From the NCBI GenBank assembly GCA_951406725.2, contig OX597821.1, positions 107,880,001 to 107,944,000 on the forward strand: DNA of 64,000 nt. The letters are read 5' to 3'. Positions 44,827 to 63,177 of the stretch are shown here, one piece after another (position 1 is the first letter of the stretch; each line of letters opens with the position of its first letter). Made by a program: the position numbers and the translations under genes. This DNA is from Octopus vulgaris. Lineage: Eukaryota. The notes below the pieces were generated by a model. It did not search any database and had not been told where the DNA came from. It saw nothing but the letters and a program-made list of their open reading frames with translations.

Positions 44827-44988
44827 TATATATATAAAATAAGAAAGAGTGAAAAACTACAAAAGGCTTGTGTTATAAGGTTAAAGGATATATATAAGTC
44901 ATTATTTTAGAAACATTTTATAAAATTTTGTGTATAGTAAAAACTATGTTACTATACACAAAATTCTGTATGGCATATATATATGTAT

Positions 44989-45060
44989 GCTGGCCAGATT
45001 GGAGCAATCTCAAGAATGATCAGCCGAAATTGCGAGGATAATCTGGTGCTTGACTGAGGA
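44989..45060 (+). ncRNA. Permuted or pseudoknotted hammerhead-like motif, family C copy 1 (5'-truncated)
   Basis: GCAA-TC-TCAAG ... TCAGCC-GAAA-TTGC ... CTTGA-CTGAGGA, with extra helix CCAGATT/AATCTGG. Confidence 0.6.
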
Positions 45061-45175
45061 TAGAGGGCTTCGAATGACCCGTCCTTGTTTTGTTTGTACC
45101 GTCTATGTGGATGTTTTGTTGTCTCTTTTTGTATCACCTAGCTGTCCGGTTGTTTTGCGTTCTTGTCCCATTTTG

Positions 45176-45218
<43 letters not shown>

Positions 45219-45295
45219 GTTAAGCCAAACATGAACAAAGAGAAAGCACAACGCGAGGACGTGGAACAAGTATAGGAAAGGAAAGAAAGAAGGCG

Positions 45296-45331
45296 GATAT
45301 AGCGTTTCGATCGGAGCTCTTCGTCAGAAAC
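45296..45331 (-). ncRNA. Degenerate minimal hammerhead, family B
   Basis: GTTT-CTGACGA-A-GAGC(TCC)GATC-GAAAC-GCT-ATAT. The cleavage triplet is mutated. Confidence 0.5.
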
Positions 45332-49210: not shown

Positions 49211-49214
<4 letters not shown>

Positions 49215-49266
49215 GTTGATTGCTCGAAATGGGGAGTAGATAGACAACCGACAACCGACGAAGGCT
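49211..49266 (+). ncRNA. Permuted hammerhead-like motif, family D (5'-truncated, degenerate)
   Basis: TGTCG ... GCTC-GAAA-TGGGG ... CGACAA-CCGACGA-AGGC. The downstream tail ending GTCCTGTAC.CA is shared with 62945-63078 (-). Confidence 0.4.
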
Positions 49267-49469
49267 CATTTTTTGTATTACTTGTCCTTTCTTTACTCTC
49301 GTTATTTGCGTATTTAACTAATTTGTTTTCGTATTTCATGTTGTTTACTGCTGGTGATGTCCTGTACCCATATATGCATATATATATATATATATATATG
49401 CCCCGCATCCATTTCCAAGTACATAAATATATATATATATATACACCACCTGGAAAAGTCTTTTAGTTA

Positions 49470-55157: not shown

Positions 55158-56221
55158 ATACACGGAATAGAGACACACATATGTATATACCTCCAGCACA
55201 AATAGGTACGTTTATGTGTATGTGCGTGGATGGGTGCGCGTTCGTGTGCGTGGATGGGTGCACGCCCGTGTGCGCACGCACGTGCTTGTGCATCTCTGTA
55301 CTATGAGTGTATGAGTGTGTGTGTGAGTGTTCAATGACCAAAGCCAAATAACCGAATTATACCCACACAAGGTAGCAATCAATCAATATTCCAGGTAATA
55401 ATACAGGTAACTAACACCGTTTGCACAAACCTGCTGTAACAGTCATTAGGGTGCGATCGGGGTGGGTAGAGGAGAAACGAGTCCTTTGAAGTAAGGAACG
55501 CAATGAACAGAACGGGTGAAACGAGGGGAAAGGGGTGGAATGGTTTGTATTGCTTTTCCGCAGATTGACCGCAGCTCTGTGTACAAGAAAATCACCTGGA
55601 CAAACGTACTTGAGAAGAATGGTGGAGTGAAAAACATGAATATGGCGGGGACAGAGATGGGAAAGAAGAGAGATAAATAAAACAATGAAATTAACGTAAA
55701 ACAATATTTAAAAATAATAAAATGTTTTTTAAAATACATGAATACATATGCTGAAGGTAATGGCGAAACTTCTGATGATTTATTTCGCTACAACTTTCTC
55801 TCACTCTTTCCTCCTGCATCTTGCAGCTCACCTGTGATGGACCGGCGTCCCGTCCAGGTGGAGAACCTATACGCCAAGAACCGGGAAACCGGCCCTTATG
55901 AGTCAGGAATGGCTCAAGAAGGAACAAACAAAAAACATACATACATATATATTCGAGGCGGGTGCTGTAAGTTCCTGGCTTTATGTGTGTCGCGAAAAGC
56001 CTGGCTGGAGGCCCAACCTTTTGAGCTTTTTCTTGTGTTTTTGAAAGGGTTTCGGAAAAATGGAGTGCTGCAATAAATATGTGAATCTGAGAAGGGAATG
56101 TGTTTTCGCAAATAGATGAAGATTTGTTTGAATGACTTTTGTCAATGTTATTTTTTACTTTTGACATTTGGTAGCCGTCACTTCTAGCTTACTTTAGAGA
56201 CAAATTGCGCGAGATTTTGTT

Positions 56222-56679
56222 ACAGATGTTTACTGTCAACAACTAATGAAACTGGAGAAAGCAATCAAAGAAAAACGGCCAGAATTGGCAAATCGTAAAG
56301 GAATTGTCTTCCACCATGACAACGCTAGACCACACACGTATTTGCTAACTCGCGAAAAATTGTTGGAGCTTGGTTGGGAAGTGATGTCACACCCATCATA
56401 TAGCCCTGACCGTGCACCATCATTTATTTCAAAGTTTGCAAAATTCTTTGAATGGTAAAACTTTCAATAATAATGATGACCTGAAAACGCACTTGCTTCA
56501 GTTTTTGGCTGATAAGGACCAGAAGTTCTATGAGCGCGGAATCATAAAGATACCAGAAAGATGGCAAAAGGTCATCGAACAAAATGAAAAGTATATTATT
56601 GATTAAAGTTCATTTTTGTACTAAAAAAGATGAGTTTATTTTATACTATAAAACCGAAATTACTTTCTTGCCAACCTAA
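56222..56679 (+). pseudogene. Mariner transposase 3' relic with right TIR
   Basis: KEKRPELANRKGIVFHHDNARPH...LGWEVMSHPSYSPDRAPS, a frameshift, then HLFQSLQNSLNGK...PERWQKVIEQN. Ends TTACTTTCTTGCCAACCTAA before TA. Confidence 0.92.
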
Positions 56680-57157: not shown

Positions 57158-57478
57158 TTTTCTCGCCCCGCCTTAATTCTTCCGTCCCTTTGCCTGTACT
57201 CCTCTCTCTCTTCTCTCCCCACCTGACCGGTGTTCGACCAAGTCTGACTTTTCTTTCTTGGTTCGTCTTCTGTCCGTCAACATCTATATTCTTCCCTGTG
57301 CCTGTGAAATCTTGTACCTCTGTCGCCAACTTAATTTAATTCGTCCTTAGACGAAATACACCTGTTGTTATGTCCTGTTATTTGTATTTGTATTTCTCCG
57401 TTTTTTTCCGCCTTTGTTTTCGTATACATTCGCTGCTTTCTTCCAAGGGATCGAATGCTCTTAGCTTAGTTTTTCCTT

Positions 57479-57553
57479 GAGGCTGGCCAGATTGGATCAA
57501 TCTCGAGTATAACCAGCCGAAATTGCAAAAATAATCTGGAATTCGACTGAGGA
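57479..57553 (+). ncRNA. Permuted or pseudoknotted hammerhead-like motif, family C copy 2 (most complete)
   Basis: GA-GGCTGG ... CAA-TC-TCGAGT ... CCAGCC-GAAA-TTG ... ATTCGA-CTGAGGA, with CCAGATT/AATCTGG. Predicted cleavage after 57502. Confidence 0.65.
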
Positions 57554-57662
57554 AAGAAAACTCCGAATGACCTGTCCTTGATTTTTTTGTATCATCTATC
57601 TGGATGTTTTGTTGTCCCTTTCTTCTATCACAGTCTGGATGCTTTGCGTTCTTGTCTCATTT

Positions 57663-57723
<61 letters not shown>

Positions 57724-60910: not shown

Positions 60911-61801
60911 TAAAGTTTATGTATGTGTGTCAGAGACGGAGGGGAGAGTGAGTGAAAGAGGGAAAGAGTAGGAGGAGGAAGAAGAGAGGTGCAGTCTACA
61001 GAGTGATTGAGTGAGTGATGAAGTCAGTGATTGCTTGAGTGAGTGAGAGTGTAAAATGAGTAAGACTGAGGATGAGGGATGGAGGTAAGGATGAAGGAGA
61101 TAAGGGAATGAATGAAAGAAGGAAACAGGGAGTGATTGAGTGAGTGTGAGAGTGAGTGAGTTACTGAATAAGTTGGTGGATGAGTGAGACAGAGAGTGAG
61201 TGCCTGATTGAGTGATTGAGAAAGTGAGTGCGCGAGTGGAAAGTAGTAGAAATCCACCAATAATAATATATTCAAAATGTACAACGCCTGAGTGTGGGTA
61301 GAATAACAATGTAAATAAACCCTTTTTATGCTATTGACGCGGGGTGGGGGGATGGAGAGAGGGAAAATCTCAGTTTCGTGGTTTGTTGACCGCTCTTCAG
61401 AGAAAAAGTGCTCAGTTTGCTCTCCCAGTCAATAACATAGATCAGCTACAATATAAAGCAGTCTAAAATTAGGCTAGCGCCAAATTAGTCAGCCTTAGAC
61501 TGCTCATCATTAGTTAAACAATAGCTGTTTTATGCAAGAGACATCGTAAATCAGATGAAATAAGAATAATTTAAACTTTACAGAGAGAGAGACACACACA
61601 GACAGATTGACAGACAGACAGAGGGAGAGAGAGAGAGAAAGATGAAGAGAAAAGGAGACACAAAGAAAGAGAGGCAGAGAAAGACCGAGGGAATCTCTTG
61701 ACGGACCTTTTTATGATGAATGCATTATTCACACTTGGTGATCTTACAGAAAGCTGTATATACTGTATATATACTCTAACCCTCTTAACTTAGACATTTT
61801 T

Positions 61802-61874
61802 GAGGGCAACTAGATCAAACCGGCTCAAGTGTAACTGCCCGAAACGGTCGTGACTTCTGGTACTTCACTGAGGA
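61802..61874 (+). ncRNA. Permuted or pseudoknotted hammerhead-like motif, family C copy 3 (divergent subfamily)
   Basis: GA-GGGCA ... ACCG-GC-TCAAGTG ... TGCCC-GAAA-CGGT ... TACTTCA-CTGAGGA, with CTAGA/TCTGG. U16.1 is changed to G. Confidence 0.55.
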
Positions 61875-62110
61875 AAGAAGGTCACGAAAGAACCGTCCTT
61901 TTTCTGCCTGTCCTTCTAATTGTTGTCTCACTTATCCGCCTTTGTATTGTCTATCTGTCCTTATGTTTTATTGTCCTCTGTTGAGTTTTTGCTCCATATA
62001 TATATATAGTTAATCCAAACATGAAAACACAAAGAGAAAACACAACAACGCAGGGACGTGAAACAAGTATAGTGTTATTCGACGCTCAGGAAAGGAAAGA
62101 AAGAAGGAGG

Positions 62111-62862: not shown

Positions 62863-63133
62863 GATAAATAAAAATATATGCATACATACAAACATATATG
62901 TACGTACCTACATCTACATGTATATATACATGCATATATAAATAATTATACGTGAGTACAGGACACCACAATAAGACGTAGAAACGGGAAAAACAAAAAA
63001 ACAAAAAACAAGAAAACGAAAAACAAAAAACAAGAAAGCGAAAAAACAGTTACAGGACGAGCTACACAAGGAAAAAAACCCCGTCATCAGCTGTCGCTAG
63101 TGGAGTCAAGCATGTTTCGAAGGCAGAGACAGA

Positions 63134-63177
<44 letters not shown>

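Follow-up and report, generated by a model that had tools for sequence, protein, structure and literature searches.

A probable hammerhead ribozyme opened within its catalytic core in Penelope-like repeats of Octopus vulgaris, with likely counterparts in Naiad retrotransposons

Introduction

The hammerhead was split by Eckert et al. (2023; PMC10085705) into three blocks, C, G and S, each of which was assumed to be uninterruptible. In the portions of that paper used here, two types are given as validated, SGC (HRIMA-1 and its variants) and CSG, together with one GCS candidate, all of them outside eukaryote genomes: SGC in metatranscriptome circles, CSG in two metagenome sequences and GCS in one bacterium. 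The SGC and CSG RNAs, which have the same ring and fourth helix as the motif described below, cleave in vitro protein-free. According to the same authors, known alignments permit an insertion of at most 1–2 bases where CUGAnGA meets its stems. Insertions into the core are known in other hammerheads, none of them of the kind opened between A9 and G10.1 in the portion of PMC3088659 drawn on here.

Canonical type I hammerheads occur in Penelope-like elements and animal non-LTR retrozymes, where they form nested three-way junctions that are often minimal (bioRxiv 10.64898/2026.07.22.740005 and PMC11167929, both as excerpted for this work). Processing of tandem transcripts has been proposed for Penelope-like hammerheads other than ours (part of PMC8557442). 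According to the sections of PMC11167929 considered here, the hammerhead of a Poseidon element cleaved only in the presence of its protein, and a Penelope hammerhead was dispensable for insertion in vitro. The Naiads, which insert into (TA)n, form tandem and inverted copies and bear an N-terminal GIY-YIG domain before the reverse transcriptase, were reported to be without canonical hammerheads in the part of Craig et al. (2021; PMC8557442) that concerns us; eight Naiad families, one of them from octopus, are flagged there as 'HHR_half_core', and the flag 'HHR_core' is also used.

Results

The window, by which we mean the whole analysed stretch of 64,000 nt (O. vulgaris contig OX597821.1, positions 107,880,001 to 107,944,000, forward strand), had been the subject of a sequence-only reading in which hammerhead elements were claimed to stand in reversed order in three related copies. 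Both the helices and their order were confirmed in the sequence. The features are given below in window coordinates, copy 2 serving as the reference.

57158..57665, + strand: 5'-truncated family A element, a non-coding Penelope-like repeat of about 720–780 nt, lying between (TA)n runs
57481..57553, + strand: copy 2, core-opened reversed-order hammerhead motif from G10.1 to A9, assigned from sequence, descriptor and family comparison
57481..57486, + strand: copy 2, stem II 5' strand, starting with G10.1 and unjoined to A9; pairs with 57513–57518 and covaries across nine families
57487..57493, + strand: copy 2, 5' strand of the fourth (scaffold) helix; pairs with 57533–57539
57494..57496, + strand: copy 2, N-G-A (GGA), non-bulged strand of the predicted kink-turn that separates stem III from the fourth helix
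57497..57508, + strand: copy 2, block S (stem III strand, U16.1-C17, stem I strand), assigned from sequence and hammerhead analogy
57497–57500 with 57523–57526, + strand: copy 2, stem III
57501–57502, + strand: copy 2, U16.1-C17, here UC
57503–57508 with 57541–57546, + strand: copy 2, stem I
4 nt, + strand: copy 2, linker between the stem I strand and the stem II 3' strand
57513..57526, + strand: copy 2, block G (stem II 3' strand, GAAA, stem III strand)
57513–57518 and 57519–57522, + strand: copy 2, stem II 3' strand and GAAA, respectively
57527–57532, + strand: copy 2, 6-nt linker, partner strand of the predicted kink-turn; G mutated to A at 57530
57533–57539, + strand: copy 2, 3' strand of the fourth helix
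57541..57553, + strand: copy 2, opening segment of block C, namely the stem I strand and CUGAGGA; past A9 the chain exits the core
57547–57553, + strand: copy 2, CUGAGGA
44989..45060, + strand: copy 1 (family C), cut off at G10.1; the element continues to about 45180
61804..61874, + strand: copy 3 (family B), U16.1 mutated (61823); element at about 61775–61997
49211..49271, + strand: further copy, family H-like, starting approximately at the predicted cut site, core mutated
63066..63137, − strand: further copy, family G2-like, beginning a few bases ahead of the predicted cut site

The fourth helix and stem III make up one interrupted hairpin, the loop of which holds UH, one stem I strand, one stem II strand and GAAA. 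This loop pairs with the upstream flank, giving stem II, and with the downstream flank, giving stem I followed by CUGAnGA, so that the whole is a double pseudoknot. By analogy with the hammerhead, cleavage of copy 2 is predicted between 57502 and 57503, after C57502. A fifth helix closing both free ends was seen in one family A fold only; the flanks differ elsewhere and it was therefore not taken as part of the motif.

Damaging changes are present in each of the three copies. Copy 2 departs from the family A majority at 57497, 57530 and 57542; because of the T at the first of these positions (G in the family) only three of its four outer stem III pairs can form, and the pairing GCAA/TTGC proposed for this stem is that of copy 1 and the family majority. 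Copy 1 had been called 5'-truncated, and its break lies exactly at G10.1 (T at 44988); that base is missing and the remaining helices, kink-turn pattern and core are all intact. The suspected mutation of the cleavage site in copy 3 is a U16.1 to G change at 61823, accompanied by mismatches in stem I and in the fourth helix. One kink-turn G is lost in each of copies 2 and 3. All three copies are decayed passengers and are probably slow or dead. The two additional truncated copies (49211–49271 and 63137–63066), absent from the sequence-only reading, belong to families other than those of copies 1–3.

CUGANGA alone occurs in the window at chance frequency (26 observed against 28.9 expected), and the case for the motif consequently rests on its helices. 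Within the window a pseudoknot descriptor matched copy 2 only; evenly spaced genome stretches totalling 400 kb gave a single weak, G-U-rich match, and five shuffles of 464 kb none. For the comparison of families we used the single G2 copy and eight majority sequences, each built from 7–30 copies that a sequence search, and not the descriptor, had picked out; the core anchored stems I and III, and the positions of the fourth helix and of the upstream strand of stem II were found by fitting over a limited range. One helix order is common to the nine families, and all 126 core-flanking positions (14 pairs in nine families) are Watson–Crick paired. The covariation that had been claimed from three copies is borne out by double changes at 13 of the 14 pairs, G10.1-C11.1 being the sole invariant one, and swapping of strands between families leaves on average 7.9 of 14 paired. 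The two long linkers, which had been proposed to pair as a fourth helix, do so with 4–8 pairs in all nine families when the register is fitted.

In a separate pair count over 12 copies of the A–F group, double changes were found at 8 of 16 pairs, and the covariation score was 0.489, compared with 0.192 after shuffling and no more than 0.098 when the registers were slid. These rows had passed the descriptor, so that the percentage paired is partly given by construction, and the count leaves out families D, G, G2 and H, which were misaligned in the MAFFT all-family alignment, as well as the fourth helix, for which the register slips. The 13 core nucleotides of CUGAnGA, GAAA and UH are kept in all nine families, and stems I, II and III adjoin the core with G10.1-C11.1 and A15.1-U16.1 in the families (copy 1 being without G10.1). 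Within families the core is conserved no better than its flanks, which means that single copies decay neutrally after insertion; selection acts on the source elements. Nested folding gave no stability signal (z from −0.6 to 0.9), a calculation restricted to nested pairs whereas the motif is a pseudoknot. An Rfam search of the window at E up to 5 returned no hammerhead among the 150 matches listed of 402, those listed being of microsatellite-driven miRNA type only. The expectation that canonical descriptors would miss the fold agrees with four family loci in which there was no Rfam match at gathering score. That the motif is a real, selected structure is, in our judgement, near certain.

In hammerheads A9 is joined to position 10.1 directly or over 1–2 bases. 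No such joining was found in six of our families, and a weaker option of four pairs exists in G, G2 and H. The bases following CUGAnGA form with the stem II 3' strand at most one consecutive pair in families A, B, C, E and F and at most two in D, while the upstream strand forms 5–6 pairs with it in all nine families; in G, G2 and H, given a 1-nt insertion, the tail could make four pairs in a row, half being G-U. The start of the motif had earlier been placed at 57479, but the GA at 57479–57480 is unconserved, occurring in 4 of the 30 family A copies, and as this minority allele it was rejected as a stand-in for G8-A9. Taken together, the poor pairing of the tail, the 5–6 pairs of the upstream strand and the rarity of this GA place the opening of the ring between A9 and G10.1, that is, inside the catalytic core as read from the pairings.

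The tail after CUGAnGA (57554–57580, 45061–45087 and 61875–61900 in the three copies) resembles in families A, B, C, E and F the vestige of a minimal type I hammerhead, with a short hairpin, GAA(U/A) and a small palindrome, and is unable to close stems I and III.

A kink-turn consists of a 3-nt bulge followed by tandem G-A pairs, in the description given in the part of PMC12510878 used here. The majority sequences of families A–F, six of the nine, fit this pattern with a 3-nt bulge and GA opposite GA; G, G2 and H have another purine-rich loop instead.

Type SGC, as described in the portions of PMC10085705 used here, is alike in its S, G, C ring order, its short linker between stems I and II, its core bases and its fourth helix, which ties together the distal ends of these two stems. 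In SGC, however, the chain is opened ahead of block S and leaves block C in one piece, whereas our motif opens at A9/G10.1, the segment of block C that follows CUGAnGA having been relocated to the 5' end. Our motif is further set apart from SGC in that its fourth helix continues on both strands into stem III, with a kink-turn pattern in the six families named above, and its host is an animal retroelement and not a metatranscriptome circle. Types CSG and GCS are circular permutations of the same reversed ring, and block C is whole in both. The motif thus has the reversed ring and crossing stems of these three types and breaks their rule of uninterrupted blocks; from types I, II and III it differs by the order S-G-C with crossing helices in place of a nested C-G-S three-way junction. 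The published descriptors require CUGAUGA(U)G and then immediately stem II, and they cannot match it.

Of the sequence-only reading as a whole, the covarying four-helix fold in reversed order stands; its suggestion that non-circular hammerheads were undescribed does not, since SGC, CSG and GCS had been published with the same fourth helix. It left out the point of opening, between CUGAnGA and the stem II 5' strand, and did not recognise the copies as termini of Naiad-type Penelope-like elements. What is new relative to the part of PMC10085705 considered here is that CUGAnGA and the stem II 5' strand lie at opposite ends of the motif. No description of an A9/G10.1 opening or of a ribozyme fold in Naiads was found in openly licensed PMC articles and bioRxiv, the supplements of the 2026 preprint cited above lying outside this search.

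When the source genome (2.8 Gb) was searched, copies 2, 3 and 1 gave 2,698, 2,114 and 3,134 initial candidate matches, respectively, figures that are not copy numbers. On the right the repeats all stop at the same point, beyond which (TA)n begins, and their left ends are variably truncated; the element at 57158..57665, which has this fixed right and variable left end, is 89–91% identical to 39 other best-scoring genome copies. The longest units are of about 720–780 nt and have no recognisable coding frame, and head-to-tail or partial tandems occur at loci L049, L033 and L010 and at L186–L189, the latter with a period of 755–781 nt. A pattern for the 3' half had at least 4,229 exact partial matches, compared with 5 for the reversed control. 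The 400 kb of evenly spaced stretches held two motif-bearing copies of A–F type and one tail, too few for an estimate of copy number. Beyond A, B and C we found families D, E and the young, near-identical F, and then G, G2 and H, the last three from a descriptor run on the flanks of fetched loci. The constant 3' terminus, the truncation from the 5' side, the insertion into (TA)n and the tandem and inverted copies are all Naiad-like, and by this anatomy the repeat is a non-autonomous Penelope-like element. Like the canonical type I units cited above, it forms short non-autonomous tandems with a hammerhead near the repeat end, for which the same role may be proposed; its double pseudoknot and full-length stems distinguish it from them.

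The same (TA)n runs are bordered, often in inverted orientation, by termini of other Penelope-like families (45220–45300 and 62008–62100 in the window; loci L018 and L083 elsewhere), some of which carry by eye a canonical minimal hammerhead-like motif. The stretch at 56198–56606 is presumably a broken mariner-like transposase remnant, judging by its motifs.

The 3' ends of the Naiads were compared through the final 330–400 characters of 53 of the 54 consensuses of PMC8557442, read by eye and not computed. The helix order of the window is clear in seven of these 53 ends (Obim, Ovul, Amil, Anas, 2_Movir, 3_Chem and EuTe), whose hosts are octopus, coral, box jelly, hydrozoan and clam shrimp, and imperfect in two more (Aacu and Bfor). 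By eye, the two octopus ends have GACACC/GGUGUC as stem II, and the coral end has GGCUCC/GGAGCC. An intact type CSG hammerhead with a long fourth helix appears by the same inspection in six ends from nematodes (1-3_Nbra, Hcon, Hpol and Asuum). Apart from these ends and from the two groups with other motifs taken up in the Discussion, the order was left unassigned, in part because the motif lies beyond the stretch of consensus covered.

Family D is the 3' end of Naiad_Obim and Naiad_Ovul in the consensus ends compared. Its pattern has 237 exact matches and none in the control. Of 13 loci fetched for a Naiad-like endonuclease, four have it downstream of the endonuclease in the same orientation, as does an internally deleted copy (L309) that has an upstream partial repeat. 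Upstream of family D, Pfam gave GIY-YIG at E 0.0015 and RVT_1 at E 0.013–0.016, all below the cut-offs, and in the broken frames the endonuclease precedes the reverse transcriptase motifs. None of the 13 Naiad-like and 3 canonical Penelope loci held an autonomous element that ends like A–C at its 3' side; these loci were the top matches of one protein search. The window copies are non-coding, and their homology to autonomous Naiads is seen only as the shared fold. Because A–C share this fold, insert into (TA)n and form tandems, we infer that they are mobilised by a Naiad. The motif is likely to be the ribozyme thought to be missing from the Naiad retrotransposons.

The Penelope loci L323–L325 are canonical Penelope-type elements with intact frames of 784 aa, 98–99% identical, and a C-terminal endonuclease.

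RNA reads for family F amounted to one in three runs. Those for family G numbered 415–661 per run, on both strands, were mostly less than 95% alike and showed no pile-up of starts or ends. The 5' breakpoints of 87 pattern-selected copies, a non-random sample in which 26 came from loci chosen as young, fell in 12 cases between the cut site and 13 nt 3' of it; two of the 87 lay exactly at the site, the next six upstream bins of 16 nt held 5, 7, 5, 3, 4 and 2, and 49 of the 87 were untruncated within 100 nt. This mild excess 3' of the cut leans towards RNAs that start there; truncation or stalling of the reverse transcriptase could also explain it.

Discussion

We consider it quite probable, from the conservation and covariation set out above, that the motif cleaves itself as free RNA at the predicted UH site. 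It would be a hammerhead-type fold placed near the 3' end of Naiad-type Penelope-like elements and of the short repeats that are likely mobilised by them. Its helices would assemble an ordinary hammerhead active site. In our model the kink would bend the fourth helix back along the core toward the distal ends of stems I and II, and this helix would replace the contact of loop I with loop II and cage the core, holding G10.1 and A9 in place bond-free; the A9-G10.1 bond would be unnecessary because the core is caged. By analogy with Penelope-like hammerheads such a ribozyme might cut tandem transcripts into unit lengths or set the 5' end of the RNA. Several observations count against this explanation, namely the lack of an RNA-end pile-up in the reads, the mildness of the breakpoint excess, the neutral decay of copies, the lack of a stability signal in nested folding and the lack of an autonomous A–C element in the loci searched. 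So do the dispensability of a Penelope hammerhead for insertion in vitro and, for a motif opened in its core, the limit of 1–2 inserted bases stated in PMC10085705 for known alignments.

It is unlikely, if still deserving of attention, that this RNA cuts only with a protein, be it the element's own reverse transcriptase-endonuclease or a kink-turn binder of the L7Ae family, and not as free RNA. The precedent of Poseidon, in the sections of PMC11167929 drawn on, speaks for such help, as do the retention of the kink-turn pattern in six of the nine families and competing pairings that can mask CUGAnGA, but families G, G2 and H have no such pattern and the related SGC and CSG RNAs cleave protein-free in the portions of PMC10085705 used here. 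The need of Poseidon for its protein, together with the dispensability of the Penelope hammerhead for insertion, makes both protein help and a minor role possible.

We think it doubtful in a higher degree that the motif descends from a hammerhead, has lost its cutting and is retained because the reverse transcriptase recognises it. Such a history would suit a core chain broken where it was thought fixed, the lack of RNA ends at the site among the reads of families F and G (one read, and 415–661 divergent reads per run), and the 130–150 nt past the cut site that every insertion retains. It fits poorly with catalytic bases, UH rule and G10.1-C11.1 that are invariant amid complete turnover of the helices, across phyla too, and with other Naiads that have by eye apparent CSG or twister-like motifs at the same place.

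That the motif is an ordinary SGC or minimal type I hammerhead, its stem II being formed by the bases after CUGAnGA and the upstream strand being incidental, seems very improbable to us. The four tail pairs of G, G2 and H (half G-U, with the 1-nt insertion) and the likeness of the tail in A, B, C, E and F to a short hairpin followed by GAA(U/A) are what this explanation can draw on; against it, the tail pairs at 0–1 positions in A, B, C, E and F and at no more than two in D, compared with 5–6 covarying pairs of the upstream strand, and there is no UH strand to match the downstream GAA(U/A). Chance resemblance among three repeat copies, which the chance frequency of CUGANGA and the small sample of three related copies might suggest, is refuted by covariation, with nine families of differing helix sequence and no shuffle matches, and we give it practically no credit.

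Returning to the self-cleaving motif opened in its core, the most far-reaching reading, to which we assign a probability of roughly 0.6, is that it would be a seventh natural wiring of the hammerhead, core-opened, kept closed by a kink-turned scaffold helix and self-cleaving; that the ring has been opened variously across the Naiads of several animal phyla, being core-opened in molluscs, cnidarians and a crustacean, of type CSG in nematodes and apparently swapped elsewhere for twister-like or other motifs at this site; and that self-cleavage is general to Penelope-like elements. If the motif cuts, one backbone bond of the core is dispensable in the best-studied small ribozyme, the block assumption behind the published list of six permutations is contradicted, and non-circular hammerheads extend from environmental RNA to animal genomes in thousands of copies. 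The statement that Naiads are without hammerheads, used to argue that Penelope-like elements need none, would also be overturned. If this far-reaching reading is true, the other motifs at the hammerhead site of Naiads become ribozyme candidates.

Six Naiad ends (Mgal, Bpla, Mphi, Scon, Mmer and 1_Movir) carry at the hammerhead position motifs that look twister-like by eye. Another conserved motif of Naiads (CGi, Skow, Pfla and others) is not known to match a ribozyme class. It is apparently structured, lies at the hammerhead position and is shared by about ten ends (CGi, Sglo, Olur, Tgra, Pmar, Skow-1/2, Pfla-1/2 and Chem-2, in the part of PMC8557442 File S5 compared here), and it may be regarded as a candidate self-cleaving RNA. 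The arthropod Naiads Smim, Naiad-1/2/4_Dst and Ptep show by eye CUGAnGA after a run of C in the same consensus ends; Naiad_Smim, in which about 3 bases separate A9 from stem II, has an SGC-like appearance and is a possible intermediate.

Within the repeat itself, 57344..57354 (+ strand) corresponds to an 11-nt stretch which in the family A and B majorities is complementary, by eye, to the stem I strand and CUGAGGA; the element of copy 2 has one mismatch there. Judged by this complementarity it is a possible attenuator, which might switch the ribozyme off in the full-length RNA.
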